Positions 2,391 through 50,090 of a stretch of DNA of 64,000 nt are shown here, piece after piece. This DNA is from an uncultured Candidatus Saccharibacteria bacterium. Lineage in GTDB: Bacteria > Patescibacteriota > Minisyncoccia > Phycocordibacterales > UBA2100. The translations under genes were made by a program, and so were the position numbers. Location of the stretch: contig CAYIDY010000001.1 in the NCBI GenBank assembly GCA_964362305.1, positions 1,526 through 65,525 on the forward strand. Reading direction: 5' to 3'. Each line of letters starts with the position of its first letter. Positions within the stretch are counted from its first letter, which is position 1. The notes beneath the pieces were generated by a model. It saw only the letters and a list, made by a program, of their open reading frames with translations, made no database searches and was not told where the DNA came from.

Positions 2391-2432
2391 CAAACGGAAA
2401 ACCCCCGGCGTAAAGCCGGGGGTTTTGGTGTT
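2391..2432 (-). terminator. rho-independent terminator of the RRM protein gene
   Basis: CCCCCGGC-GTAAA-GCCGGGGG stem at 2402-2422, flanked by an A-run and a T-run. On the minus strand the stem is followed by TTTTCCGTTT. Confidence 0.7.
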
Positions 2433-5156: not shown

Positions 5157-8100
5157 TCAACCGGCTAAGAAGCATGCGCCACCTGGGTTGTAATTACACG
5201 TCACGATGAAAGATGCTGGGTCCGAGCATCGAGAGATCTGTGTTCCTTCCTTTCGGCATACTATAACCGTATGCGTTGCACCATTGTCGGGAAATAGTAA
5301 TTGCCATCCGAGCCAACCAGACTTGAAGCTCGATATCCCCGGAGGCAAAATCTCCGCATTCGTCGTGGAGCCATCATAACGCACGACATGTTCATACCCT
5401 GCGCCATCTGAATCGAGGAATTCGAGCGAAGGCGTATTGGTGGGTACGGAGCCCTGACCTTTGATAAGAATTTTGTGTCCACTGATTCCAACGACTGCAT
5501 CGCTCCAATTTGGAACGCCGCTACAATAAAGAGCAAATTCAGACGGCGCCGTAAAGCTCGTTGTCCACGAACCCGTTCCACTCACCGGATTCTGCGGGTA
5601 TACGCTCTGAAATACATTAGGCAGCGCTGTCCAGAGCCGAGTGCGCACCGCGCACGACTTCCCACGCGTATCCCAGGTTGCCGTCGCGCTGCCTCCGGAG
5701 GTGATTACTTTCGGTGATGAAGTGATTATTGCGTGGCTCGCGAGCGGCCCGGCAGGTTTGACGTCAACATAGACTGCCTCCCTGATGCTTCCAGAATTGT
5801 TTGCAAGGCAGTTGAGCTCGTATCTCGTATCAGCTCCCGGCTTATGTGTGTGACTTCCCTGGAGCGGCAGGTTATTTGCTACTAGCATTGTGTCAGTTCC
5901 GCCGCCTGCCCAGAGTTTGCATGATGTCATACCACTCTGTGTTGCATTCCAAGACAGAGTTACTGATTCCACCAATACGGGATAAGCGGCAGTAATCGAC
6001 GATGGCGAAACCGTAAGTTTGAGTTGTGGCGTCGGTGGGTATGTACCGGCTACCGGCGAGACGGTGACAGTCGCCGTTCCTACTGTTTGTAAGACCGTCG
6101 AACAATTAGTGCCCGCGGCGCACGTCGGAGCGAATAGAAGTACTGCATTGTAAGTACCGGCTGAAGAATACGTGTGCGAGCCTGACCAGTCTGTGCCGCA
6201 GCGCCCTACTCCCGAGACGTCCTGGTTGCAGATGAGCGCTTCTTGTCCGTTGCCATATTGCAGATAGTATTTGCCACTCGTTCCGACATTGATTGCCTTT
6301 AGATTGACGAGAAGAGGCGCCTGGCCTTGCGTAGGTGTGGCTTCAAGCCGGGTCATTGCGCCTCCAACGGTAACGGTGCGCGTTTCCGTCGCATACCCGC
6401 CACTGTTCATCTGGCAGCTTGCCACATATGTCGTAGTGACCTGCGGTGCATGGGTGGTCGTGACGATGTTCCCGCCTGCATCAATCGTGAGCGTGGAGAG
6501 TGGCACACCATTTGCGGTAAACGAACATGACGGAATGTGGACATCATTCTTCGTCGTGTCCTTGGACACGCGAAGTGTCACTGTCTGACCGGCAGTGACC
6601 GATGACGGAAGCGCGGTGAAGTTGAATGACGTGTATGGATCCACTCCTCCCGTGACACCCACTGTCGCCGAAGCGGTGAACGCTGTCGATCCAAACGGAC
6701 CAGATCCGGTGCATTGAATGCCATACGTGGTGAAGGATGTAGGAGTATGCGTCATCGTTCCTGGCATTTCTTTGCTACTCGCTATGGTCGTGCCGTTTGC
6801 GGTGATCGAGCATAGGCCAATAGACCAGTTGGCAGTCCAATTGGAAACATTACTTCGTGCCCAAGAGAGCGTGACCATCTGACCTGATGCGACAGAAGAC
6901 GGCGTCGCGGTGAGTTGAATCGTTGGCAGGTTGCCCACAGTCGGCGTCACCGTGACATATCTGGTACCGGTGTACGAGATCAATAAGCCCTCGCCGCATA
7001 CAATCTTGTAGTTTGTCGAACCTGAAGGAGAGTGTGTATACGAGGTTTGAGTGGTGAATGTTCCTCCAATCTGAACTTCATTTGCGTAGAGCTTGCATGA
7101 GGCGGTGCCTGCGGTGAATCGTGGTACAACCCACGAGAGCGTGACCGATTGGCCAGCGGTGATGGATGAAGGTGATGCGGTGAGAGTAATTGTTCCGCCA
7201 CCACTTCCACCCGGACATCCTGCGAATTCACAGCTTGGCGCTACTCTTCCTACATAGCTACCGTTAGGACACTGCTTCGCGTCTTGTGGGCATACGATAC
7301 TCCCTGTCACCGGCCCCACCCCAACATATGTATACGCAGAAGCCGCTTTAGAGTCGACAAGACTTCGGCAGTCCATGCGATAGGTTGTGCTCACAGTCGG
7401 CGTGTGCGTGCGGGTTCCGGGCACTTCGAGCGACGTCGCAATCTGCGAATTGTTTGCATACAGTGTGCAGACGAGGCGTTGGAACGCCGAATTCGTTGAG
7501 CTCCACGAAAGTGTCACCGACTGCCCCGGTGTCACACTGGATGGCGTAGCGGAAAGCGTAAGATTGAAATCACCAGGCGGAAGTTCCGGTTGCGTCCTCA
7601 CATACACAATCTTCACATCCTCTTTTGAAGTGCCATTGCCGAATTTCGTGGTGGCGGTAACCGGAAACACACCAATAGAGGAATAACTGTGCCAGTAGGT
7701 GGTGGTGTTTGCATATTCTGATGCAGAGTTGTCTCCCCAATCCATTTTGTACGTCGCGGTAGTGTCACCTGACGGCGTCAATGTCCACGTGTTGACCTGG
7801 TTCACCACAACGTTGTCAGGACCATTTATTTTTGCCGCATCACTTGGACCCAGTGGCGGTGGAGTATTGCCGCCATTGACGCAGCGCGAGAAGAGGAGCG
7901 AACGAGTGCGCGGACCTACCATACCGTAGCCGGTGGTGTCAGGGCTGCCCGTGCAGCTGATGCCTTCTGCACACTGGAATGCCTTAACGGCTGTTTCAGT
8001 CGCAGCATCAAATGTTCCGTTCACTGCTCCGGTATAGCGTCCAATCTTTGTGAGCATGCGCTGGAGCTTGGATACCTCACCGTTGGTATCAGCATCCGTG

Positions 8101-8774
8101 TGACCGAGGTAGAGAGTACGGGAGAGAGGAGCGCATTGCACTGCTTCGTTGTTGGGGGTGACGGTGACGTATGCGGTAGCAGTCGCGGGGGCACCTTGCG
8201 CGAAAGGACGACAGGAAATCTGATACGTAGTGTTTACCGTGGGGTTGTGCGTGAAAGTGCTTGTCGTAGGTTGATTCTGTGCTATCGAAGTCCCATTGGC
8301 GGTGAGAGAGCATGTGTCGAATTGTGTTCCAGAAGCCCATCGAAGGGTGACGGTGCCACCGGATGCGACCGACGTGGGTGACGCGGTTAGGGTGACGCCA
8401 CCACTTCCCCCCACCTGACAGCGCATCGCAGCACGTGTGCGCGGACCAACAACACCGTAGCCAGTTTCCCTGGGAGTACCACTGCAGGCGATGCCTTTGG
8501 CACATTGATATTTCTTGAGCGCAGCCTCCGTTGCAGGCCCGAAGTATCCGGTGATGCTTCCGTACGTGTAGTCACCAGTCTCCGTCAAGAACTGTTGCAG
8601 CTTCGAGACTTCCCCATTTGTCGTCGCATCACTCGAACCCAATTGGAGCAAGCGCGTGAGGTTCACACACGCATTTGTCTGTGCTTCAGTTGAAATTGGC
8701 GCACTCACAAGAACAAACGCCGAAATAGTGATGCCGGTGATGATAATGGCGAAGCCACGAATCGCTGGTGACAT
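5157..8774 (-). CDS. large secreted repeat protein: 2 N-terminal peptidoglycan-binding domains plus about 7 Ig-like repeats
   Basis: Signal peptide MSPAIRGFAIIITGITISAFVLVSAPISTEA. Duplicated PG_binding_1-like segments (GEVSKLQQFLTETGDYTYGSITGYFGPATEAALKKYQ and GEVSKLQRMLTKIGRYTGAVNGTFDAATETAVKAFQ). Repeated LTASPSSxxxGQxVTLSW...C...ANG...TTYxxxC modules. Confidence 0.8.
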   Translation of the reverse strand: MSPAIRGFAIIITGITISAFVLVSAPISTEAQTNACVNLTRLLQLGSSDATTNGEVSKLQQFLTETGDYTYGSITGYFGPATEAALKKYQCAKGIACSGTPRETGYGVVGPRTRAAMRCQVGGSGGVTLTASPTSVASGGTVTLRWASGTQFDTCSLTANGTSIAQNQPTTSTFTHNPTVNTTYQISCRPFAQGAPATATAYVTVTPNNEAVQCAPLSRTLYLGHTDADTNGEVSKLQRMLTKIGRYTGAVNGTFDAATETAVKAFQCAEGISCTGSPDTTGYGMVGPRTRSLLFSRCVNGGNTPPPLGPSDAAKINGPDNVVVNQVNTWTLTPSGDTTATYKMDWGDNSASEYANTTTYWHSYSSIGVFPVTATTKFGNGTSKEDVKIVYVRTQPELPPGDFNLTLSATPSSVTPGQSVTLSWSSTNSAFQRLVCTLYANNSQIATSLEVPGTRTHTPTVSTTYRMDCRSLVDSKAASAYTYVGVGPVTGSIVCPQDAKQCPNGSYVGRVAPSCEFAGCPGGSGGGTITLTASPSSITAGQSVTLSWVVPRFTAGTASCKLYANEVQIGGTFTTQTSYTHSPSGSTNYKIVCGEGLLISYTGTRYVTVTPTVGNLPTIQLTATPSSVASGQMVTLSWARSNVSNWTANWSIGLCSITANGTTIASSKEMPGTMTHTPTSFTTYGIQCTGSGPFGSTAFTASATVGVTGGVDPYTSFNFTALPSSVTAGQTVTLRVSKDTTKNDVHIPSCSFTANGVPLSTLTIDAGGNIVTTTHAPQVTTTYVASCQMNSGGYATETRTVTVGGAMTRLEATPTQGQAPLLVNLKAINVGTSGKYYLQYGNGQEALICNQDVSGVGRCGTDWSGSHTYSSAGTYNAVLLFAPTCAAGTNCSTVLQTVGTATVTVSPVAGTYPPTPQLKLTVSPSSITAAYPVLVESVTLSWNATQSGMTSCKLWAGGGTDTMLVANNLPLQGSHTHKPGADTRYELNCLANNSGSIREAVYVDVKPAGPLASHAIITSSPKVITSGGSATATWDTRGKSCAVRTRLWTALPNVFQSVYPQNPVSGTGSWTTSFTAPSEFALYCSGVPNWSDAVVGISGHKILIKGQGSVPTNTPSLEFLDSDGAGYEHVVRYDGSTTNAEILPPGISSFKSGWLGWQLLFPDNGATHTVIVCRKEGTQISRCSDPASFIVTCNYNPGGACFLAG

Positions 8775-22554: not shown

Positions 22555-23484
22555 TCAAAAAATAACAGCTTCTTCTGAAAGCTCGATTCCAAACTCCCGG
22601 CGAACAGCTTGTTTAATGTTCTCCGCAAGCTCTTTCACGTCGCGTGCTGTAGCGTTGCCCGCATTCATCAAATAATTTGGATGTTGCTCGCTGGCCATCG
22701 CGTCTCCGACGCGAGCCCCTTTCATGCCTGCTTTTTCGATGAGCCAGCCTGCTGGCACCCTCCCTTCGCGCGATTGAACACCTTTTTCCTTCTCAAACAT
22801 TTCGCGCACAGCGCTCGGCGCTACCGGATTCATGAAGTACGAGCCTGCAGCCCGTACATTTTGGATGTGTCGACGTTCTCGCTCCCTGATGGTTTCTTCT
22901 ATTGACGCCACCGCTTTTTCATTTTCTACGCGTGCAAGTCTCACTTGCACAAAGGTGATGACCCACTCAGGATTCTTTTTGAAAAAACTGTTGCGATAGG
23001 CAAACTCACATTCGTTCATTTGAAACTCGCGCACTTCGAAGGTGTGTATATTGAGCGCCTTTGCATACAAGAGCACATCTTTAATTTCAGTTCCAAAAGC
23101 ACCGGCATTGCCGCGCACCGCGCCGCCAATCGTGCCTGGAATGCCGGCCAGTTTTTCCCATCCACCTATTCCAAGTACTGCAGTTTTTTTAATGAGTTCA
23201 AGCAAGTTGCACCCGCTTTCTGCCTCTAGGTCGTTGCCCGACACGCTCCATTTATTCATGGCAACGTCAATGACAAGTGCCTCAAGAGTATTATCCGGAA
23301 TCAATACATTGCTTCCGCCAGCCAATATGACATGAGGCACTCCTTTGGAGCGTGCCCAAAGGAGTGCCTCACGAAGTTCGCCTTCATTTTTAATTTCGAC
23401 AAAATACCGTGCATCACCACCAATCTCAAAAGTGGTGCGTGGGGCAAGTGGAATTTTTTCTTGAATGTTTAACATGGTTGACAA
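22555..23484 (-). CDS. murB: UDP-N-acetylenolpyruvoylglucosamine reductase
   Basis: FAD-binding PCMH domain (LAPRTTFEIGG, ILAGGSNVL) and MurB C-terminal motifs (GWLIEKAGMKG, RDV). Confidence 0.9.
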   Translation of the reverse strand: MSTMLNIQEKIPLAPRTTFEIGGDARYFVEIKNEGELREALLWARSKGVPHVILAGGSNVLIPDNTLEALVIDVAMNKWSVSGNDLEAESGCNLLELIKKTAVLGIGGWEKLAGIPGTIGGAVRGNAGAFGTEIKDVLLYAKALNIHTFEVREFQMNECEFAYRNSFFKKNPEWVITFVQVRLARVENEKAVASIEETIRERERRHIQNVRAAGSYFMNPVAPSAVREMFEKEKGVQSREGRVPAGWLIEKAGMKGARVGDAMASEQHPNYLMNAGNATARDVKELAENIKQAVRREFGIELSEEAVIF

Positions 23485-23755
23485 ATCCCTTCCTCATGGC
23501 ATCATGCGATGCGGACTCTGGTTGGGGGCAGGTATGTATCTTCGCATATTCGCGCTTGTACTGCATTTCTACCCTCAACCAGAGGAGAGTCAGATGACAG
23601 TAGATCTGATAGCAAATCTCGCTATCGTTGCGTCAGTCATTGCAGCATGTTTCTCAGTGGCAGGATTATTAAAAGGAGATCTCTTCGGAGCATTGCTTTT
23701 GATTACATCCGCCTACGGGTTCGTCAGTTTGGCTGAAGCGATTTGCACGGTATAG
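23465..23755 (+). CDS. possible small membrane protein (start likely internal at MTVDL...)
   Basis: The C-terminal 53 aa form two hydrophobic helices (LIANLAIVASVIAACFSVAGLL...ALLLITSAYGFVSLA). It overlaps the murB start. Confidence 0.25.
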   Translation: MFNMVDKSLPHGIMRCGLWLGAGMYLRIFALVLHFYPQPEESQMTVDLIANLAIVASVIAACFSVAGLLKGDLFGALLLITSAYGFVSLAEAICTV

Positions 23756-23826: not shown

Positions 23827-23847
23827 ATGCAAGGCTAAGCCTTGCAT
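23827..23847. repeat. palindromic element copy 1 (ATGCAAGGCT-A-AGCCTTGCAT)
   Basis: Perfect 10-bp inverted repeat with a 1-nt spacer, followed by TAGGGCTTGGTGGCG. It lies between the uvrB stop and the upstream region of small ORF 23465..23755 and murB. Confidence 0.6.
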
Positions 23848-23885: not shown

Positions 23886-25982
23886 CTATTTGCGGGATTT
23901 TCGCCCTTTGAGCGGGACTGTGCTACTCAGTATCTTCTCGTCTTTATTCGCCTTCTTTGGTCTGTCACTTTTGTCGGCCTTCTCTTCCTCAAGTTTTCGA
24001 ATCTCATCGCGCAAAAGTGCTGCGGTTTCAAAATCCAATCGGTCAGCTGCCTCATGCATCTGTCTTCGTTTCTCTTTCAGAAGCTTTGCGATGTCTCCAC
24101 CAAACGCGGCGCGGTCCAAACTGGTAAGTTCTTGAATCGCTCGGTTTCTCGCTCGTTGGATGTCGCCGACAATGTCGTGAATACGCTTCTTAACAGTCGT
24201 CGGAGTAATTCCATGCTTCGTGTTATAAGCAACTTGCTTCTCGCGACGACGATTTGTTTCCCCTATTGCGCGCTCCATCGAGCCCGTCATACCATCCGCA
24301 TACAGAATCACACGACCATTCACATTTCGCGCAGCGCGCCCAATGGTTTGAATCAGCGAGGTCTGACTGCGTAGGAACCCTTCTTTGTCTGCATCAAGAA
24401 TTCCTACGAGCTCTACTTCAGGTAAGTCCAATCCTTCTCGGAGCAAGTTAACGCCCACTAACACATCAAATGTTCCTTTACGGAAATCAGTAAGAATTTC
24501 AATTCGCTCGATAGTTTTGATATCGCTATGTATGTACCGAGCTTTAATACCCTTCTCAATCAAAAACTGCGCTAAGTCTTCCGCCATCTTTTTTGTGAGA
24601 ACGGTCACCATTGAGCGAGCGTCTTTCTTCGTGACAATCTCCGCTTCACGTATGAAGTCTTTGACTTGTCCGACATACTCATCTTTCGCCACTATTGGCC
24701 GTACTATGATTTCAGGGTCAATAAGTCCCGTCGGACGAATAATCATTTCTACTGGCTTTCCACCCTTCACTAGCTCGTATTCCGCTGGTGTCGCACTGGT
24801 ATAAATCGTCTGTCCAGTATTCTGAACAAATTCCTCAAATTTTAAAGGACGGTTGTCCACGCAGCTGGGAAGACGAAAACCGTGTTCGGTCAGTGTCAGT
24901 TTGCGTGAGCGGTCTCCCGAATACATTGCGCCAATCTGCGACACGGTCACGTGCGATTCATCGATAATGGTGAGGAAATCTGGCGTGCCGTCCGGCTTGT
25001 GCGGAAAATAGCTGAGAAGCGTGTACGGCGGCTCTCCCGGCGCGCGTCGGTCAAAGTGGCGCGAGTAGTTTTCAATTCCGTTGCAGTAGCCAAATTCGCG
25101 AATCATCGAAATATCCTGGCGCGTGCGCCGCTTGAGGCGCTCGTGCTCCAATATCTTCCCTTCTGCCTGGAGCTCCTTCAATCTCTCTGCCAATTCTGCT
25201 TCCATATCGGCGAGCGCAGCGTCGGTGACGTCTTGTGGCGTCACGTAATGGCGTGCAGGAAAGATGAAGACACCATGTTCTTCTTTTTTAATAACGCGCG
25301 TAATCGGATCCATTTCCTCTATTTTGCTTATTGCACCACCGCCAAGATGAATGCGATACACAATACGCTCGTTTGCCGGCATGACTTCCACGCGCTCGCC
25401 AAGAGCGCGAAAGGTTCCGGGCGACAAATCGCCGGGCGTTCGTTCAAAATGCATGGCGACCAATTTTCGTGTGAGGGATGCGCGCGTCATCGTTTCCCCA
25501 ACATTCAATTTAAGATTCACTTTTTCGTATTCTATCGGCGAGCCCAAGCCGTAAATACAAGACACTGATGCGACAATGATGACGTCGTCGCGGGTAAGAA
25601 GCGCCTGCGTCGCGGCGTGACGCAACCGCTCGATATCCTCGTTAATCATGGCCTCTTTCTCGATGTACGTGTCGGAAACCGGCACGTACGCTTCCGGTTG
25701 GTAGTAGTCGTAATACGAGACGAAATAATGCACAGCGTTGTTCGGGAAAAATTCGCGATATTCCGCCGCCAATTGAGCGGCGAGTGTTTTGTTGTGCGCT
25801 ATGACGAGTGTTGGCTTCCCCCATTCGTGAATGATATTTGCCATGGTGTACGTCTTGCCGGAGCCGGTGACACCAAGAAGTGTCTGGTCGCGTTTGCCTT
25901 CCCGCAAGCCATCCATAAGTGCAGTAATGGCGTGTGGCTGGTCTCCGGAAGGTGTGTACGCGCTTTCTAGTTGGAATGACAT
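23886..25982 (-). CDS. uvrB: excinuclease ABC subunit B
   Basis: Helicase motifs (GVTGSGKT, DESH), a beta-hairpin region and a C-terminal UVR domain (FETAALLRDEIRKLE). Confidence 0.95.
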   Translation of the reverse strand: MSFQLESAYTPSGDQPHAITALMDGLREGKRDQTLLGVTGSGKTYTMANIIHEWGKPTLVIAHNKTLAAQLAAEYREFFPNNAVHYFVSYYDYYQPEAYVPVSDTYIEKEAMINEDIERLRHAATQALLTRDDVIIVASVSCIYGLGSPIEYEKVNLKLNVGETMTRASLTRKLVAMHFERTPGDLSPGTFRALGERVEVMPANERIVYRIHLGGGAISKIEEMDPITRVIKKEEHGVFIFPARHYVTPQDVTDAALADMEAELAERLKELQAEGKILEHERLKRRTRQDISMIREFGYCNGIENYSRHFDRRAPGEPPYTLLSYFPHKPDGTPDFLTIIDESHVTVSQIGAMYSGDRSRKLTLTEHGFRLPSCVDNRPLKFEEFVQNTGQTIYTSATPAEYELVKGGKPVEMIIRPTGLIDPEIIVRPIVAKDEYVGQVKDFIREAEIVTKKDARSMVTVLTKKMAEDLAQFLIEKGIKARYIHSDIKTIERIEILTDFRKGTFDVLVGVNLLREGLDLPEVELVGILDADKEGFLRSQTSLIQTIGRAARNVNGRVILYADGMTGSMERAIGETNRRREKQVAYNTKHGITPTTVKKRIHDIVGDIQRARNRAIQELTSLDRAAFGGDIAKLLKEKRRQMHEAADRLDFETAALLRDEIRKLEEEKADKSDRPKKANKDEKILSSTVPLKGRKSRK

Positions 25983-26338: not shown

Positions 26339-27613
26339 TTACGCAAGGGTGAGTACACTCACGGTGCGCTTCCCTCGCTTAAGAAGCGCTACAGAAGCAC
26401 TCTCAAAATCTTCTTTCATGACCAGGCGATTTGTATCTGACACCTTCGCTCCGTTCAAGGTAATTGCCCCATCTTCGGTAAATTGACGCGCTTCGCGTTT
26501 CGATGATGCAAGATTCGCGCGAACTAGAACATCTGCCAACAATTCCCCTAGTTTTACCTCGCAGGACGGAGCCTCTTGTTTCAAAAGTTCAATGTCTTTT
26601 TTAGTTAGATTTTCAACCGCGTTCACATCACCAACAAAAAGAACCGATGATATTTTGCCTACAGCTACCGCTGTTTCCGTACCATGAACGAGCTCTGTAA
26701 CGCTATGAGCAAGTGCTCTTTGCGCATTGCGACGTTCGGGATGCTCTCGATGATCATTTAACCATCTCTCGATTTCGGATTTCGGAAGCAATGTCATCTT
26801 GAACAAGAGCTCCTCAACCATCTCGTCGTCGACATTAAGCCAAAATTGATAGAACTGAAACGGCGACGTCTTTTTTGCATCAAGCCACACCGCATTTCCT
26901 TCCGATTTTCCAAATTTCTTGCCGGCTTTATCCACAAGCAGTGGCCACGACAGCGCGTACGCTTTGTTTCCCATCTTGCGTCGAATAAGCTCTACTCCTG
27001 AAATAATATTTCCCCACTGGTCGGAGCCGCCGACTTGTAAGTCGCATCCATAACGCTTGTTCAATTCAAGGAAGTCGTATGCCTGCAGGAGCATGTATGA
27101 GAATTCGGTGTACGAGATACTTTGGTCGGGCGTCTCGAGGCGTGGACGAACGGTGTCGCGTTTTATCATTTCATTGACGGTGAAATGCTTGCCGATATCG
27201 CGCAAAAACTCCATGTAGTTAATCTTATGAAGCCATTCAGCATTGTTAACCATTTCAAACTCGACGCCGCCGAGAAGCTGTGAAAATTGTGCGCGCAGCG
27301 CCATTGCATTTGCAGCGACGGTTTCTTCTGAGAGTAGGTTGCGCTCAGCGCTTTTGCCGCCAGGGTCTCCTACCATTCCCGTTCCTCCTCCAACGATAAC
27401 TATAAGCATATGCCCGGCATCGACGAATCGGCGAAGGACGAGCATGCCCATCAATTGGCCGGCGTGCATAGAATCTGCCGTAGGGTCAACACCTAAATAG
27501 AGCGTACGCTTCTCGCCATCTACTATCTCCTCCAAGCTCTCTGCCGAGAACTGATACACGTACCCCCGTTCCTTTAGTACCTCTGACAGCTTCATGGCGG
27601 AAATATAGCACAA
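26339..27613 (-). CDS. tyrS: tyrosine--tRNA ligase
   Basis: Class I HIGH-like region (DPTADSMHAGQL), KMSKS-like KFGKS, and a C-terminal S4 domain. The likely start is MKLSEV at 27595. Confidence 0.9.
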   Translation of the reverse strand: MCYISAMKLSEVLKERGYVYQFSAESLEEIVDGEKRTLYLGVDPTADSMHAGQLMGMLVLRRFVDAGHMLIVIVGGGTGMVGDPGGKSAERNLLSEETVAANAMALRAQFSQLLGGVEFEMVNNAEWLHKINYMEFLRDIGKHFTVNEMIKRDTVRPRLETPDQSISYTEFSYMLLQAYDFLELNKRYGCDLQVGGSDQWGNIISGVELIRRKMGNKAYALSWPLLVDKAGKKFGKSEGNAVWLDAKKTSPFQFYQFWLNVDDEMVEELLFKMTLLPKSEIERWLNDHREHPERRNAQRALAHSVTELVHGTETAVAVGKISSVLFVGDVNAVENLTKKDIELLKQEAPSCEVKLGELLADVLVRANLASSKREARQFTEDGAITLNGAKVSDTNRLVMKEDFESASVALLKRGKRTVSVLTLA

Positions 27614-34092: not shown

Positions 34093-34125
34093 TCAAAAAA
34101 AATTGCCCCCGCTTGCAGGGCAAGT
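34093..34125 (-). terminator. rho-independent terminator after gene 34191..34559
   Basis: TTGCCC (34103-08) pairs with GGGCAA (34118-23), with an A8 run on the plus strand (T8 on minus) directly after the stem. Confidence 0.6.
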
Positions 34126-34190: not shown

Positions 34191-34559
34191 TTAGGCTAGT
34201 GTATCCCCCAACTGCACAGAGTCCTTCTTTGGTGCAATTAAGACCCACCCATCTCCCTCGGTATTCTTGAAACCAAGCGTTAGAACTTCTGATGTGAATC
34301 CAGCAACTTTCTTTGGCGCAAAATTTACGACGCAGCATACGAGAGAGCCAAGAAGCTCTTCTTTCGTGTGCGCGCCAACCGCTTGTGCACTCGATGACTT
34401 GATGCCAATTTCCGGCCCAAAATCGATTTTGAATTTGAAAGCAGGTTTTCGCGCTTCGGGAAAGTCGGAAATATCAATAATTTTTCCGACTCGGATATCC
34501 ACTTTGTGGAAATCATCGTATGCAATCTTCGGCAGCAACTCCGTCATGATTACGAGCAC
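34191..34559 (-). CDS. tRNA-binding domain protein (CsaA/EMAP-like)
   Basis: OB-fold tRNA-binding signature (HKVDIRVGKIIDI...VNFAPKK..GF.SEVL). Confidence 0.8.
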   Translation of the reverse strand: MLVIMTELLPKIAYDDFHKVDIRVGKIIDISDFPEARKPAFKFKIDFGPEIGIKSSSAQAVGAHTKEELLGSLVCCVVNFAPKKVAGFTSEVLTLGFKNTEGDGWVLIAPKKDSVQLGDTLA

Positions 34560-35323
34560 GTAAGTTCTACTACGTGTGCATCGTGCTCAGATAGTTTGAC
34601 CTCTGTAGCTTTCCCAAGGAGTGACGCCCCATTGAGTGTCACGTTTTTGACGTTTGACGGAAGCTGAATTGATATTGAGTACGTCAGTAACTTCATCGAA
34701 AGTACCCCTTTCGATGTGCCATCAACATGCAGCGACACCCCTGGAAGTGTAATGCTCGACGAGCCCCCACTTTCGAGAGGCTCGCTCGGGAGCTTCAGCC
34801 CCGGAATGGTGATGGGAATCGAGTTTGCTGGATACAGTGTCTGGCACCCATTATTTTTTATAGTGATGTCCACTGCAGTTTGCTGCATCACGACAACGCC
34901 AACAGCAAGCACTGTGACGAAACCAAGCGGGCCTTTTGCGTGTCGGAAAACGCGCCCCCAATGCGAGACTTTGTCAGATGAACCGCCTTTTTCTGCGACA
35001 CTCATTTCAACGCGCACGCGCTCGACCTCGGTACCTAACTGCTTCCAAGTCGAAATAAATAACAATAGCCATTTCTTTCTCCCTTTCTCTTCTTCTGTGT
35101 TTTCAGGCAAACGTTCGGCAGAGAGACTTACCACGTCACCGTCTACCATCTTGTCCCAGGTCGAAAGATGCCGGTCAAGACTCGATAGATGTTGATCTAT
35201 GGCTGGATTTACTCCTTGAATTAGTGTGCGTATCTGTGAAAATGCTTGTCGAGATGTGAGTGGTTCGAGTAGCAATGCTTGCGCAGCTGCAATTTTTCGA
35301 TGGGCCTCATTCTTTTGTGGCAT
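34550..35323 (-). CDS. hypothetical single-pass membrane protein with beta-rich extracytoplasmic domain
   Basis: 257 aa: a roughly 125-aa cytoplasmic N-region, a TM helix GPLGFVTVLAVGVVVM, then a Ser/Thr/Leu-rich ectodomain. It overlaps the downstream CsaA-like gene by 10 nt. Confidence 0.55.
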   Translation of the reverse strand: MPQKNEAHRKIAAAQALLLEPLTSRQAFSQIRTLIQGVNPAIDQHLSSLDRHLSTWDKMVDGDVVSLSAERLPENTEEEKGRKKWLLLFISTWKQLGTEVERVRVEMSVAEKGGSSDKVSHWGRVFRHAKGPLGFVTVLAVGVVVMQQTAVDITIKNNGCQTLYPANSIPITIPGLKLPSEPLESGGSSSITLPGVSLHVDGTSKGVLSMKLLTYSISIQLPSNVKNVTLNGASLLGKATEVKLSEHDAHVVELTCS

Positions 35324-35389: not shown

Positions 35390-35431
35390 ATCCTGCAAGG
35401 CTAGACCCTTCAGAATATAGCCTTGCAGGAT
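35390..35431. repeat. palindromic element copy 2 (ATCCTGCAAGGCTA-N14-TAGCCTTGCAGGAT)
   Basis: Perfect 14-bp inverted repeat sharing the TGCAAGGCT core, followed by TTGACCTTTTTTTG. It lies in the divergent intergenic region between 34550..35323 and 35459..36742. Confidence 0.6.
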
Positions 35432-35458
35432 TGACCTTTTTTTGTGTAGACTTCAGCC

Positions 35459-36742
35459 ATGAGTCCAGAGGGTTCCGAATCCCAGCGCAACTCTCAAGGC
35501 AAAGAAGGTCTCGCTATTCGAGCATCGTGGGGAAAGGATCCAGTAATAAGCCATGTTGTATGTTCGTTGCTGGAACGCGAGGATGTAACACCACAGCAAA
35601 TTGTCTCTATTGTCTCCCGAATCAAAAAAGACGATCAGGCTCTTAGTGTAGATATGCTGAAGCAATTTGTGGTGCGTGCAGGCAGCAGAAAAACTGCAGT
35701 GACAGTTCTAAAAGGGCTTCAGTCTGGCCCCGCAACGGATGACGCAAGACTTTTGCCAGAGCGTCTCAATGATTTGTTGAGACTTACCCCGCAGAAAAAT
35801 ATGTCACCGTGGCTGCACTATAATCGAGCAAGAACGCTGGGCGCACTCCTCCTTGCTAATCCGTCGGTCTCAAAGGATTTGATTGTTAAAGCATTACGAG
35901 AACATTGCAATATCCCAACACTACAGGTTTCTGCATTGAATAAACCTCTTGCGCGCTGGAAAAATACATCCGCCGATCGTTCACAAGATCCTCGCCAGTC
36001 ATTCGCTGCCGCCTTATGTAAGGATTGTCAAATATTTGACCCTAAATTATACGGTGAAATGATACCGCTCGCGAGGAAAATTGCAGAACAAATGTCAGAA
36101 ATTTCTAAGGAAGTTCATATTCGACGTTCTGAAGGAACTAAGGAAGGACTCAGCCCTGGTCGAATTGAGCGCTTGCAAACTCGGATTCGTTCAGCGATTA
36201 AAAGCCTGCGCTCCCCTGAATTCACATTGCCCGCCCTCTCGGAAGCAGCTCAACATCGGCTCGAATACGCACCTTATGCGTCCTTTGTAGAAAGCTTGCG
36301 CTCCGAAGACTCGTTCTCTACACCTCACATCCGGGCGTATCTTACTAAACAAGCGTATCCCGTACGCGGCTTTGTTGCTCGCGAAGTACTGGTTACAGCA
36401 CTTACAATCGACTTTAACCTTGAAGGAGGAACGGGACCTTCGCGCGAAATTGCACGAAGGATACTTGCGCTACTAAAAGAGGAAATGCGTGAGCAGCAAA
36501 ACACCGACTCCTCGCCTTTTTCAACATGTCTCGTTCATTCGATGTTGAAACGGGATTCCAATCGGGAACCGATCTTGAGCTGTGAATGGAGGGATACAAG
36601 GGCTCAATGGATACGTTGGAGTAAGGAACGCAGGATGTCTGCTTCTCAAATAGGCGCACGAAAATTCCAAGTTGACATAAATGCAATTGAAAGATTGGCT
36701 TCAGAATCATCTGTTGCTTCCGTGAAGAAGCGGAATGAATGA
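35459..36742 (+). CDS. hypothetical cytoplasmic protein (427 aa), no recognisable domain
   Basis: Long ORF with balanced composition and no TM segment. No catalytic motif identified by eye. Confidence 0.6.
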   Translation: MSPEGSESQRNSQGKEGLAIRASWGKDPVISHVVCSLLEREDVTPQQIVSIVSRIKKDDQALSVDMLKQFVVRAGSRKTAVTVLKGLQSGPATDDARLLPERLNDLLRLTPQKNMSPWLHYNRARTLGALLLANPSVSKDLIVKALREHCNIPTLQVSALNKPLARWKNTSADRSQDPRQSFAAALCKDCQIFDPKLYGEMIPLARKIAEQMSEISKEVHIRRSEGTKEGLSPGRIERLQTRIRSAIKSLRSPEFTLPALSEAAQHRLEYAPYASFVESLRSEDSFSTPHIRAYLTKQAYPVRGFVAREVLVTALTIDFNLEGGTGPSREIARRILALLKEEMREQQNTDSSPFSTCLVHSMLKRDSNREPILSCEWRDTRAQWIRWSKERRMSASQIGARKFQVDINAIERLASESSVASVKKRNE

Positions 36743-38028: not shown

Positions 38029-38190
38029 ACGTATTCGTGCGGCAGTGCCGCTTAATGATTATTTCAACAATCTTGAGCGAGTTTCAGCCTAGGAGATACA
38101 GGCCGGTCTCGAGAGATAGCTCAAGACGATAAACTAGAGAAAGTTGACTTGGCAACTCTACAATACCCTTAATCATCCGTCAATGGCCTG

Positions 38191-38209
38191 ATGCAAGGCT
38201 TAGCCTTGC
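38191..38209. repeat. palindromic element copy 3 (ATGCAAGGCT-T-AGCCTTGC)
   Basis: Same core as copy 1 with a similar downstream flank GGGTTTGTTAGCGGCG. It lies between the DEAD-box helicase start and the stop of 38217..38426. Confidence 0.55.
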
Positions 38210-38216
38210 GGGTTTG

Positions 38217-38426
38217 TTAGCGGCGGGCGAGCATTTGCTCCTTCACGCAGTCCAGGCAGGTCTTCTGGCGAGGTCGGGTCGAAATGTACTTATTGCCACA
38301 ATCGCACTCCAGAATCTTGCTTTTCAGGGGCTTATATACGTAAACGCCCGGTGTCGGCTTCTTTGCCTCGACCTTCAGAGAGGCTTTTGGTGCCGGAGTC
38401 TTCTTTTGTTTCTTTTTGGTAGCCAT
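38217..38426 (-). CDS. small basic zinc-ribbon protein
   Basis: 69 aa with a Lys-rich N-terminus, then CDCG...C..C (ECDCGNKYISTRPRQKTCLDC). Confidence 0.45.
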   Translation of the reverse strand: MATKKKQKKTPAPKASLKVEAKKPTPGVYVYKPLKSKILECDCGNKYISTRPRQKTCLDCVKEQMLARR

Positions 38427-47345: not shown

Positions 47346-50090
47346 TTACCGAATCTCAAACGCGTCAACGAATGGGAAGAATAGCTTGTACCAGTTTGGC
47401 TCAGATGAGCTGACGGTATCGTTTTTCTTCTTGTTCGAAGTTGCCTTGAAGATTGGCGCTGGTGCGTTCACGTCTTTGAGAAGAACCTGTGTGCCACTCT
47501 TTTTGCCGGTGAGCGCTTTGCCAGGGAACGACTTCGGCAGGTTTGTTCCGACTTCTTCGTACGCAGGGTTGACGGTGCCTGGTGACGCTTGGTAGCGACT
47601 CTTGAAGGCATTGATTTCACCGAGCTGTTGTTCTGAGAGTCCGAATGAATCTCCGTTTACACAGTAGAGGTCGTTTATTTTGCGCTGCGTCGTGTAGTAC
47701 ACGTGCCCTGTTGGCTCTTCAATTCCCCACGGAGTGAGAACTTCGCTTGAGTACTTTGCCTGGAAGCGTTTGACCGCAGCGACCGTGATGTAGTCGTAGA
47801 TGCCAGTGACATCGAGTGCCTCACCTTCCCATGCGTTCAGGAAGCCTTGCAAATCTTTCACATCATCCATGTCCACTGGCTTTCCGACCTTCATGTAGCT
47901 CTGAAGCAGAGGCACACACTGAGGGCCATCGTTCACTGCTACCACGTCCGACTTTTCATCGACAGAGACATCAACCGAGTCCGTCGCGGGGTCGAGCGGT
48001 TGTGGGTATATGTAGATTGATTCGTTCTTGAAGCCGGTGAGTTTTGCTGTGTTGTTGTACACGCCGTATGGAATGCCGGTGTTGTATTCAACGGTGTAGT
48101 TTACGGTAATTTCTTCCCCATCTTTAATCGTGTTCAAGACCCAGTGACGAGCAAACACGCGGTTGCCATCCGGCCCCTTCAAGGTGTCTGCAAGCTTTGC
48201 GCGATAGATTGCACCACCACCTTTGTTATTCTTCACAACGATTTTGTAATCAACTTTTGCTGGAGCCGATGCCTTCACAATACTTGCTGTCTTTTCAATC
48301 GTGACATTTGGATTTGAGATATAGCCTCCAGGAGCGCCTCCTCCAGCCTCCGCTGTGCCTACGAGAATCTGTCCAGCGATTTGCGTCAATGGATCCGAGC
48401 CGGAGCCTGCAGGGTCTGGACCGAAGACGAGGTTTCCTTTCCAGTCACCCGAAACGGTGAAGAGGGCAAAAATCCAGTCTTGACCAATAATCGTTTGATT
48501 TAGAACGTTGAGAATCTGCACAAATGCATTTGCGTCTCCCGTTTTAATCTTTGCTGCTGCGCCCGCAGCTGCGTTGTTGCCTGTTGTTGCTTCAACAATC
48601 GCATTGTTCAAGACCTTCGCGTAGTTGGTCGTTGATGCATGAACTCCGCGTACTCCCGCGCGACTTTCATTCGTTCCCGCGCCACAGATAATTTCTCCAT
48701 AGCTTGTCTTTTCGCGAGAGAATCCATCAGGAAGACGCACAACATTACCCTGCCATGCACCTCCTACGTTCACTATGAAGCACACTGGTGCACCAATTTG
48801 GTTTACGAAGTTCATCGCGACGGAGTCAGAGTTTGCCTGGCCTGTTTGAATCTGTGCCTGCTCTTGTGTTGAAGATGCCGATGCGGTATTCGAGCCAGAG
48901 AGTGCATTTGCAGTTCCGTTGTTTGTTACATCAGCGGTGTTGTCCGCATTAAGCGAGCTTCGAGGGCCAAACTTCGAACCGGTTGAAAGCGTTCTGAAGA
49001 AGTTTGCGTCAGGAAGCACGATGTTTCCGTCCAAGTTCCCTTGATTCGCCATAAGAATAATCATGTAGCGCGAATCAACAATCTGTAGGTTTCCGAAGTT
49101 TACGATTCCACCAAACGCACTCGCGTTACCGGTGTCCACTGAGGCAACGCCTGAATCAGATGTAGATGTGTTTGTCCCTGTGCCCGCACGCACAACAAGA
49201 TCATTTGTTACTTCTGCACTCTGATCGGTGATGATGTTTAGGACTGCATCGGCTAGAGAACAACCAGAAAGTGAACATCCTCCCACGTCGCTCGCGAGGT
49301 TGTTGAACATGTTCATAATGCGGTCGGTAAAGTCGAGTTCTGTCGAGAGTGGGTTCTTCAAAAAGAGGAGTGAGCCTTGAGAATTTGTGACGGCCACGTT
49401 GAAGAGTGAGATGAGGTACCCGAATGCATCTGCATTTCCTGTTTTAACCGATGCGCCACTGTCCTGACTTTGCGCTTCGTTTTCGCCAGTTTCAGCTACA
49501 GATTCGCCTTCGTTCTCCATCACCAAGTCCTGTGTCGTTTGAACGACGACTGGCGGGGGCTTCACGATGTATTTGTCACAATGCGGCTGCCAGCTTTTTT
49601 GACACAAGAGGATGTACCATGTTGGCGGTTTGCCAAACGGATACGTTGTTCCAACCGGCATGATGTCAGAGCTTGTTGTGTTTGCACTGTTGGTAGCTGT
49701 CGTGTCAGACGATGCGTTGCCTGTCACAACTTCTGCCGGAGCCGGGTCAGTTACTGCCGGCGGGTCTTCTGTAGCATTTGAACTGTCACCGTTCTCGCCT
49801 GTTCCCGCAGGCTCTGTTGAAGTCTGTGAGTCTCCATTTTCGCCGTCTTGTGGCGCGGTGTCGGGAGCAGGGCTTCCATCGTTTCCATCAGTACCGTCGG
49901 TTGCATTCGTATTCTCTGTAGGTGTCGGTTCCGGCGTTGGCGTCGTTTCTACAACGGGTGCTGGTTCACTCGCCTCTTGAGCATACGAAGCGGCAACCGG
50001 CCAGAGTGGACTTATTGCGAGATGCACTGCAAGTGCTATCGCGAAATTCCGAAGCCAAAATGTTTTTAAATCTTTTGTCATAATGCGCAC
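47346..50090 (-). CDS. large secreted low-complexity surface protein with C-terminal peptidoglycan-binding domain
   Basis: Signal peptide, a Thr/Pro/Glu/Asp-rich N-region, four (V/I)xTG(N/D/Q)AxxF..(I/L).N..N repeats, a DUF11-like segment and a PG_binding_1-like segment (DDVKDLQGFLNAWEGEALDVTGIYDYITVAAVKRFQ). Confidence 0.8.
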   Translation of the reverse strand: MRIMTKDLKTFWLRNFAIALAVHLAISPLWPVAASYAQEASEPAPVVETTPTPEPTPTENTNATDGTDGNDGSPAPDTAPQDGENGDSQTSTEPAGTGENGDSSNATEDPPAVTDPAPAEVVTGNASSDTTATNSANTTSSDIMPVGTTYPFGKPPTWYILLCQKSWQPHCDKYIVKPPPVVVQTTQDLVMENEGESVAETGENEAQSQDSGASVKTGNADAFGYLISLFNVAVTNSQGSLLFLKNPLSTELDFTDRIMNMFNNLASDVGGCSLSGCSLADAVLNIITDQSAEVTNDLVVRAGTGTNTSTSDSGVASVDTGNASAFGGIVNFGNLQIVDSRYMIILMANQGNLDGNIVLPDANFFRTLSTGSKFGPRSSLNADNTADVTNNGTANALSGSNTASASSTQEQAQIQTGQANSDSVAMNFVNQIGAPVCFIVNVGGAWQGNVVRLPDGFSREKTSYGEIICGAGTNESRAGVRGVHASTTNYAKVLNNAIVEATTGNNAAAGAAAKIKTGDANAFVQILNVLNQTIIGQDWIFALFTVSGDWKGNLVFGPDPAGSGSDPLTQIAGQILVGTAEAGGGAPGGYISNPNVTIEKTASIVKASAPAKVDYKIVVKNNKGGGAIYRAKLADTLKGPDGNRVFARHWVLNTIKDGEEITVNYTVEYNTGIPYGVYNNTAKLTGFKNESIYIYPQPLDPATDSVDVSVDEKSDVVAVNDGPQCVPLLQSYMKVGKPVDMDDVKDLQGFLNAWEGEALDVTGIYDYITVAAVKRFQAKYSSEVLTPWGIEEPTGHVYYTTQRKINDLYCVNGDSFGLSEQQLGEINAFKSRYQASPGTVNPAYEEVGTNLPKSFPGKALTGKKSGTQVLLKDVNAPAPIFKATSNKKKNDTVSSSEPNWYKLFFPFVDAFEIR

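Follow-up and report, generated by a model that had tools for sequence, protein, structure and literature searches.

REP sequences are short palindromes that form stem-loops of about 20-40 nt. They are paired with a RAYT, a domesticated transposase of the Y1 HUH type. Three features define a REP/RAYT system: a transposase gene flanked by the repeat, one hairpin type for each transposase, and the HUH and tyrosine motifs of the protein (PMC3337134, PMC8266576). In E. coli, Stenotrophomonas and Marinomonas, the RAYT binds the single-stranded form of the hairpin, and cutting and rejoining of DNA take place next to it (PMC3333891, PMC3479197, PMC8266576). In the case of REPINs, each RAYT is specific to one REP type (PMC3337134). 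REPs can also influence mRNA stability and termination (PMC3337134, PMC3733652).

The group 3 REP of Stenotrophomonas maltophilia is an 8-bp perfect palindrome with a 3-nt loop (PMC8266576, PMC3479197, PMC3333891, PMC3337134). A GTAG tag is present in the proteobacterial REPs that have been studied experimentally (PMC8266576), and a GTAG or CGTC tag defines the proteobacterial super-families (PMC3733652, PMC8266576). The tag does not define the REP/RAYT mechanism as such.

Nearly all that has been characterised of REP/RAYT systems comes from Proteobacteria. The kind of system is well known, and the host group considered here is under-studied. Full-text literature searches returned no paper that links REP, REPIN or RAYT with Patescibacteria and none that contains the core sequence described below, and these phyla go unmentioned in a large phylogenomic survey of Y1 HUH enzymes from 2018.

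A different kind of dispersed palindrome is found in Rickettsia. The Rickettsia palindromic elements (RPEs), reportedly described by Ogata et al. in Science in 2000, are about 100-150 bp long and are restricted to that genus. To our knowledge, no transposase is associated with them.

The DNA analysed here, called the window, is a stretch of 64,000 nt from a Patescibacteria genome. Its patescibacterial affinity can be seen in UvrB, whose nearest named homologues (76-81% identity) come from Candidatus Parcubacteria, Kaiserbacteria, Paceibacterota and Minisyncoccia; relatives at 90-92% identity are P0125-P0127. An identical uvrB gene lies on a 4.5-kb contig of a groundwater assembly from the Hainich aquifer (0.1-um filter fraction). 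The window contains three palindromes with a common core. They are probably REP sequences of a REP/RAYT system in this genome, and a cognate RAYT is proposed to be encoded elsewhere in it.

The first-pass annotation had placed three palindromes at the window positions listed in Table 1, and all three are present there with the sequences it had read. They share the core pattern GCAAGGCT-N-AGCCTTGC, in which the spacer is 1 nt in copies 1 and 3 and 16 nt in copy 2. Short GC-rich hairpins are common after genes, and the three copies could be imagined to be a product of chance, or independent terminator hairpins that have converged on one stem. Against this, the window has three matches to the pattern GCAAGGCT-N(0-20)-AGCCTTGC, and 100 dinucleotide-preserving shuffles have none. 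Reading by eye had yielded no more copies in the 64 kb, and scans of the window agree, with no further copy at up to 3 mismatches, and none when the spacer may vary and up to 2 mismatches are allowed. Three copies in 64 kb amount to a modest density.

The exact 9-mer TGCAAGGCT occurs six times when both strands are counted. Five of these occurrences are arms of the three palindromes, and the sixth is a lone copy at 47843, within coding sequence. One extra 9-mer compares with about 0.5 estimated by chance (128,000 positions on both strands / 4^9), so lone arms are not enriched. A DNA-uptake sequence was considered as well, and was ruled out by this lack of enrichment outside the palindromes.

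Table 1. Coordinates of the palindromes, cores and related features, in the window or in the locus named.
Feature	Locus	Position	Sequence or form	Remark
Palindrome copy 1 (probable REP)	window	23827-23847	ATGCAAGGCT-A-AGCCTTGCAT	core 23829-23845
Palindrome copy 2 (probable REP)	window	35390-35431	ATCCTGCAAGGCTA-N14-TAGCCTTGCAGGAT	core 35395-35426; 14-bp perfect inverted repeat, 14-nt loop
Palindrome copy 3 (probable REP)	window	38191-38209 (38210 with trailing G)	ATGCAAGGCT-T-AGCCTTGC(G)	core 38193-38209
Copy orthologous to copy 2	L163	1299-1317	CTGCAAGGCT-A-AGCCTTGCAG	simple 1-nt-spacer form
Copy orthologous to copy 3	L164	4711-4731		degenerate copy
Copies after other minus-strand genes	L164	1122-1145, 1515-1537		none there in the window
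Canonical intrinsic terminator	window	34103-34123 (minus strand)	hairpin plus T8	17 nt before the bipA start codon
Bidirectional terminator hairpin	window	2398-2426	AAAACCCCCGGC...GCCGGGGGTTTT	
Cores at predicted RAYT gene	L181	7766, 8472		gene 7727-8446
Cores at predicted RAYT gene	L232	884, 1590		gene 933-1646
Cores flanked by presumed DnaA box	L181	7274-8665		
Cores flanked by presumed DnaA box	L232	660-3460		
Cores flanked by presumed DnaA box	L168, L174, L195, L198, L199, L203, L209, L212-L214, L216			Ga0209542 contigs
In-frame cores	L184	1965-2014		UvrD/AddA-type helicase
In-frame core	L213	1881		PMT
In-frame cores	L214	2630, 3142		Lnt
In-frame core	L212	1276		ComEC
In-frame core	L195	5263		IleRS
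Predicted RAYT with own hairpin	L222	930-1820		
Predicted RAYT with own hairpin	L228	9880-10720		
Predicted RAYT with own hairpin	L230	9900-10700		
Predicted RAYT with own hairpin	L234	9500-10330		
Predicted RAYT with own hairpin	L235	9900-10720		
Predicted RAYT with own hairpin	L233	5560-5670		
Same 9-nt arms outside Patescibacteria	L047, L048, L051, L056, L060, L061, L066, L067, L074, L089, L091, L111, L113, L120, L123, L124, L134, L135, L146, L158; L058, L068, L082, L084, L104, L110, L148, L152, L161; L065, L070, L105			

Every copy can fold into a hairpin as single-stranded DNA. The stems of copies 1 and 3 are 7-9 bp long with a 3-nt loop (DNA parameters; RNA was also folded), which resembles the perfect 8-9 bp stem and 3-nt loop of proteobacterial REPs. 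Copy 1, with a 9-bp stem, has a folding energy of -9.3 kcal/mol (z = -4.6), copy 2, with a 14-bp stem, -14.8 kcal/mol (z = -7.1), and copy 3 -7.6 kcal/mol; z lies between -2.9 and -7.1 over the three copies. Their lengths (17-21 nt, and 42 nt in copy 2) fit a short REP-type stem-loop. An outer pairing of CCACCA with TGGTGG round copy 1 is at chance level.

Two features of the proteobacterial systems, which are also called REPtrons and include E. coli TnpA-REP (4ER8) and S. maltophilia group 3, are missing. None of the three hairpins of the window has a GTAG or CGTC tag at its foot. There are also no REPIN or BIME doublets, in which two inverted REPs are separated by a short spacer: all three copies are singletons, and copy 2 has a duplicated arm rather than a second REP.

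A perfect palindrome over 17-21 bp is also what would be expected of a double-stranded operator for a dimeric transcription factor at neighbouring promoters, one of the options that the first-pass annotation had raised. The half-site spacing, however, differs by 15 bp between copies. Such a difference is incompatible with one dimer geometry and harmless for a hairpin.

All three copies are intergenic. The non-coding share of the window is about 5% under a generous ORF model, and the chance of this placement is therefore about 1e-4. The gene contexts had been given correctly from the start, as the uvrB 3' end, the region upstream of a DEAD-box helicase gene, and a gap between divergent unknown genes. 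Copy 1 separates two convergent genes: uvrB, which ends (stop at 23886) 38 bp before the copy, and a small plus-strand ORF with a stop at 23755. Copy 2 lies between divergent genes at 34550-35323 (minus) and 35459-36742 (plus), neither of which has a Pfam match. Copy 3 follows a conserved 69-aa minus-strand ORF (38217-38426), whose stop is 7 bp away, and precedes the helicase start (38028) by about 165 bp. Copies 1 and 3 had also been said to share similar downstream flanks. This likeness does not hold up, as 84% of shuffled flanks reach the same local alignment score.

These contexts bear on the operator in different ways. Copy 2 sits in a divergent promoter region, where it is retained in the related contig L163, and copy 3 is upstream of the helicase gene, as an operator might be. 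Copy 1, on the other hand, lies between two gene ends and has no promoter to control.

Some other features of these gene regions are recorded here in their own right. Inside murB, at 23333-23371, there is a 16-bp perfect inverted repeat, TGAGGCACTCCTTTGG-7 nt-CCAAAGGAGTGCCTCA. It encodes EALLWARSKGVPH, which aligns gap-free to solved MurB structures, so it is a coding palindrome and not an insertion. No second copy of it occurs in the window.

The minus-strand leader of the DEAD-box helicase gene contains conserved blocks (window 38071-38166; L164 4560-4650). They comprise the inverted repeat TCTTGAGCG...GCTCAAGA (38071-38079 and 38119-38127) and AAACTAGAGAA(A)GTTGAC. The leader region has no Rfam match. 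It may be a regulatory 5' leader.

The 427-aa gene beside copy 2 starts without a Shine-Dalgarno sequence. The motif TGTAGACTT-(5-6 nt)-ATG lies just before its start and is kept in the window (35441-35461) and in L164 (1949-1966). The TAGACT found 6 nt before the ATG looks like the -10 box of a leaderless mRNA.

The same 427-aa protein identifies the closest relatives of the window. It has only two homologues in 5.8 billion proteins, and their contigs are L163 and L164. Both are syntenic with the window; the DEAD-box helicase is 96% identical in L163 and 82% in L164, and the small ORF by copy 3 shows homology of 63% over 83 aa.

Together the two contigs carry four more copies of the palindrome in 8.6 kb. 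Two are at sites orthologous to window copies, and two are elsewhere. L164 has no copy at the copy-2 site. It does have one after a tRNA-binding-domain gene, a site at which the window has an ordinary terminator. This mixture of orthologous and non-orthologous sites, with the copy-2 site empty in L164, points to gain and loss of copies between close relatives. The lineage thus provides seven copies, all of them intergenic, and five of the seven lie 7-40 bp after the stop of a minus-strand gene.

The comparison also suggests how copy 2 may have acquired its unusual form. Its loop reads GACCCTTCAGAAT, where L163 reads AGCCTTGCAGAAT. The 14-nt loop may be what is left of an inner right arm that has decayed, with a second arm, still intact, behind it as the product of a partial duplication; similar partial duplicates in L180, L197 and L221 support this. 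A local function is another possible reason why copy 2 has been kept at the orthologous site in L163. A tblastn search found no RAYT homologue in the 64-kb window, in L163 or in L164.

Since so many copies follow a stop codon, the hairpins could instead be primarily RNA elements. They would then terminate the transcripts of the upstream minus-strand genes or stabilise their 3' ends, copies would have a common stem-loop through a host RNA-binding protein or RNase, and no transposition would be involved. The RNA folds of the palindromes are stable, and a simple scan calls copy 3 terminator-like on the plus strand. In the AT-rich relatives L170, L189 and L190, runs of A and T surround the core as in a bidirectional terminator. 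Known effects of REPs on mRNA stability and termination point in the same direction (PMC3337134, PMC3733652).

Like an intrinsic terminator, the typical copy is a GC-rich hairpin shortly after a stop codon. Unlike such terminators, neither copy 1 nor copy 3 has a U-tract on the strand of the gene that precedes it; the first-pass annotation had noted this, and no T-run is seen at either. Copy 2 follows no gene, and the T7 that lies 5 nt past its stem has no upstream gene on that strand. One stem is also reused in unrelated loci and genomes. Taken together, these points rule out plain terminators. The genome does possess U-tract terminators, and they are unrelated in sequence (Table 1), which means that the T-less copies are not its standard terminators.

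Nor does Rfam recognise the palindromes. Only a tRNA reaches gathering score in the window, E-value searches round the three copies give noise, and none of the three regions belongs to an Rfam family. Elsewhere, the core occurs on both sides of transposase genes and in-frame in coding regions of a sister lineage, positions that a terminator would not tolerate. An RNA function as the primary role is therefore unlikely. A secondary one is compatible with the evidence; by itself it would leave the origin of the repeat unexplained.

A scan of metagenomes for the 19-nt palindrome TGCAAGGCT-N-AGCCTTGCA found 57 loci, eight of which have two or three exact copies. The sample Ga0209542 alone accounts for fourteen of the contigs; others are from Ga0180007/9 and from Hainich wells, the source contig among them. 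For a contig of about 10 kb that already has one exact match to the 18 specified bases, the expectation of a second is roughly 1e-7. About 41 single matches to the variable-spacer pattern were found in a collection of viral contigs. These are at background level. With an identical core in relatives and several copies on individual metagenome contigs, in addition to the shuffles, coincidence or convergence is effectively refuted, and its probability is negligible.

Outside the core, the sequence of the metagenome copies is usually self-complementary as well, and it differs between lineages and from site to site. Structure rather than sequence is thus conserved beyond the core, contrary to what an operator would require.

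The ORFs of all metagenome loci were clustered, which yielded one recurrent protein of about 235 aa adjoining the repeat. In four loci from three lineages (L181, L173, L187 and L232), two cores in inverted orientation directly flank its gene. In L181, L173 and L187, the gene start is preceded by one core at a distance of about 26-31 bp, and the last codons are overlapped by the other. L232, which was reached through the RAYT gene (P0006) and not through the repeat, has five cores in 11.6 kb.

Several lines of evidence identify this protein as a predicted RAYT. It matches the Pfam family Y1_Tnp (E = 4e-10). Its best NCBIfam match is NF047646, 'REP-associated tyrosine transposase', at 30-47 bits, which is below the curated cutoff of 80. 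The NCBIfam scan took in four proteins, all from loci other than L232. NF047646 is the only match for three of the four and the best for the fourth, that of L187, which also has the single IS200 match, a weak one of 16 bits. The HUH motif NHFHLL and the tyrosine motif YIHLNP are invariant as full strings in four aligned proteins, and the H-x-H of the former and the tyrosine of the latter are invariant over 29-30 homologues.

The predicted fold agrees with this assignment. An AlphaFold2 model of P0006 (pLDDT 88, pTM 0.85) has as its top Foldseek match 4ER8, the E. coli TnpA-REP bound to a REP hairpin (E = 1.3e-6); matches to the IS608 and ISDra2 transposases have E values of 4e-4 or weaker. A phmmer search against PDB sequences returned nothing, so the match was given by fold comparison only. 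The patescibacterial proteins are also longer than the 4ER8 chain, at about 235 aa against 165 aa.

The family is large: at E <= 1e-10, public data contain over 7,900 homologues. All homologues that carry an organism name are from Patescibacteria, apart from two labelled only '[bacterium]'. One homologue is labelled by JGI as 'REP element-mobilizing transposase RayT'. The RAYTs of L181 and L173 are only 39% identical and have nevertheless kept the same core.

The first-pass annotation had put forward three options: an operator, a REP-like repeat and an RNA-stability hairpin, the last of which may apply as a secondary effect. A REP-like repeat is supported by the same core at RAYT-type genes in other Patescibacteria and by multiple copies in several lineages. 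The operator fared badly. Neither an association with a transposase nor copies inside genes, as in the coding regions of the sister lineage, would be expected of one, and the unequal spacing and the position of copies after stops add to this. An operator is now a highly improbable explanation.

IS200/IS605 elements such as IS608 and ISDra2 offer another comparison. Their subterminal hairpins act as single-stranded DNA substrates of a Y1 HUH transposase, as is proposed for those here, and hairpins bracket the gene in both cases. The patescibacterial hairpins differ in being far more numerous than the transposase gene and in occurring by themselves. By NCBIfam score the protein is also nearer to the REP-associated family than to IS200, and by fold it is nearer to 4ER8 than to IS608.

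Each of six further RAYT homologues has its own, different hairpin on its flanks (Table 1). Their hosts are Saccharibacteria, Minisyncoccia, Niyogibacteria, Paceibacterota, Taylorbacteria and an unclassified Patescibacterium. Examples of these hairpins are TTTCAAGGCCATTCCTTGAAA, GGAGGTTTAACCTCC, TGTGCGTGACTCGGTGACGCACA, TGTGCACCACTCGGTGGTGCACA and TGTGCAACACCGAGTGTTGCACA; the Taylorbacteria unit is TTATCCACAT-CCCAGGTCCAACCTTGC-ATGTGGATAA. The middle of the stem varies and the outer bases are kept, and several of the hairpins share an outer TGTGCA...TGCACA with the unit of the L173 type. The core of the window flanks only the L181/L232 and L173/L187 clades of RAYT genes. One hairpin for each RAYT homologue matches the specificity described for REPINs, in which one RAYT serves one REP type (PMC3337134).

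A repeat-flanked Y1/HUH gene, a separate hairpin for each clade, and the HUH and tyrosine motifs are the features by which REP/RAYT systems are defined. Their presence in related Patescibacteria is why the palindromes of the window are read as REP sequences. The likeness to proteobacterial systems extends, for the seven copies of the window and its two relatives, to dispersed extragenic hairpins that usually lie just after genes, and also to a predicted fold nearest to 4ER8. Differences lie in the genome-reduced host, in a core common to RAYTs that are only distantly related, and in the frequent intragenic copies of one sister lineage.

The arms alone are less informative than the complete unit. 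In a genome collection, the matches listed for the variable-spacer pattern are mainly unrelated single hairpins and multi-copy families with longer loops (Chitinophagaceae, Ca. Avichristensenella, Porphyromonas). Among the matches listed, the 9-nt arms TGCAAGGCT/AGCCTTGCA occur as multi-copy families outside Patescibacteria (loci in Table 1), each with its own conserved flanks. Loops of 3 nt are found in Chitinophagaceae (Flavihumibacter, Pinibacter and strain 26-R-25) and in a Porphyromonas MAG, and, again among the matches listed, loops of 7-8 nt in Ca. Avichristensenella. No RAYT was seen in the fetched stretches of the Chitinophagaceae and of some Clostridia families that share the arms. 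Because of this, the arm sequence alone does not prove membership in the system.

The way in which the copies may have arisen can be outlined by analogy with the work in E. coli, Stenotrophomonas and Marinomonas, from which we infer the mechanism. Each copy would fold into a short hairpin on single-stranded DNA. A RAYT, putatively encoded elsewhere in the source genome, would recognise the hairpin and cut and rejoin the single-stranded DNA beside it. Repeated cutting and rejoining would spread copies between genes and maintain them there. Once in place, the hairpins would be co-transcribed with the neighbouring genes and might acquire a secondary role at RNA 3' ends or in RNA stability, an effect that is plausible for REPs in general.

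A variant of the same unit is found in the sister lineage formed by L181, L232 and the Ga0209542 contigs. There the unit is asymmetric and reads CTC-core-TGTGGATAAC. The flank contains TGTGGATAA (TTATCCACA on the other strand), which is the exact DnaA-box consensus. Many copies have the box on both sides (GTTATCCACA-core-TGTGGATAAC). The box side faces the RAYT gene, and the non-box side reads CTC/GAG. Most TTATCCACA sites in the contigs of this lineage adjoin a REP core. The three copies of the window lack the flank; a lone TTATCCACA at 26928 is unrelated to the repeats.

Most copies in the sister lineage lie inside long ORFs, where they are in-frame and within or between conserved domains. 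An example can be found in the helicase of L184. Compared with PcrA (1PJR), it has about 28 extra amino acids exactly at its two cores, between motifs V and VI. In-frame cores are also found in the PMT, Lnt, ComEC and IleRS genes of other contigs.

These insertions resemble RPEs, in that a palindrome lies in-frame in conserved genes and leaves the reading frame intact. Unlike RPEs, the patescibacterial element is only 19-40 bp long and is associated with a RAYT, and the copies of the window are all extragenic.

For the window itself, three REP sequences after or between genes would be an ordinary finding. The specialist interest lies in the DnaA-box flank and the in-frame insertions of the sister lineage. 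A wider reading, offered tentatively and with more doubt than conviction, is that the system to which the core belongs has spread through much of the genome-reduced Patescibacteria, which might be expected to purge selfish repeats. At least one lineage would then combine perfect DnaA-box units, which might be bound by DnaA, titrate it or link the activity of the RAYT with replication, with routine in-frame insertions of the RPE kind, and the window would represent a 'classical', strictly extragenic branch.

A REP family in ultra-small, streamlined groundwater bacteria, together with the thousands of RAYT-like homologues, would indicate that pairs of repeat and transposase persist in very small genomes. 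It would also give annotators a simple explanation for intergenic hairpins that recur in CPR MAGs.

IleRS, one of the proteins with an in-frame core, has a further peculiarity in Patescibacteria. The protein is about 1190 aa long and has a His_Phos_1 domain inserted in the middle of its catalytic domain, as seen in L195 (2643-6209) and in L230 (20075-20651, where the gene runs off the locus).
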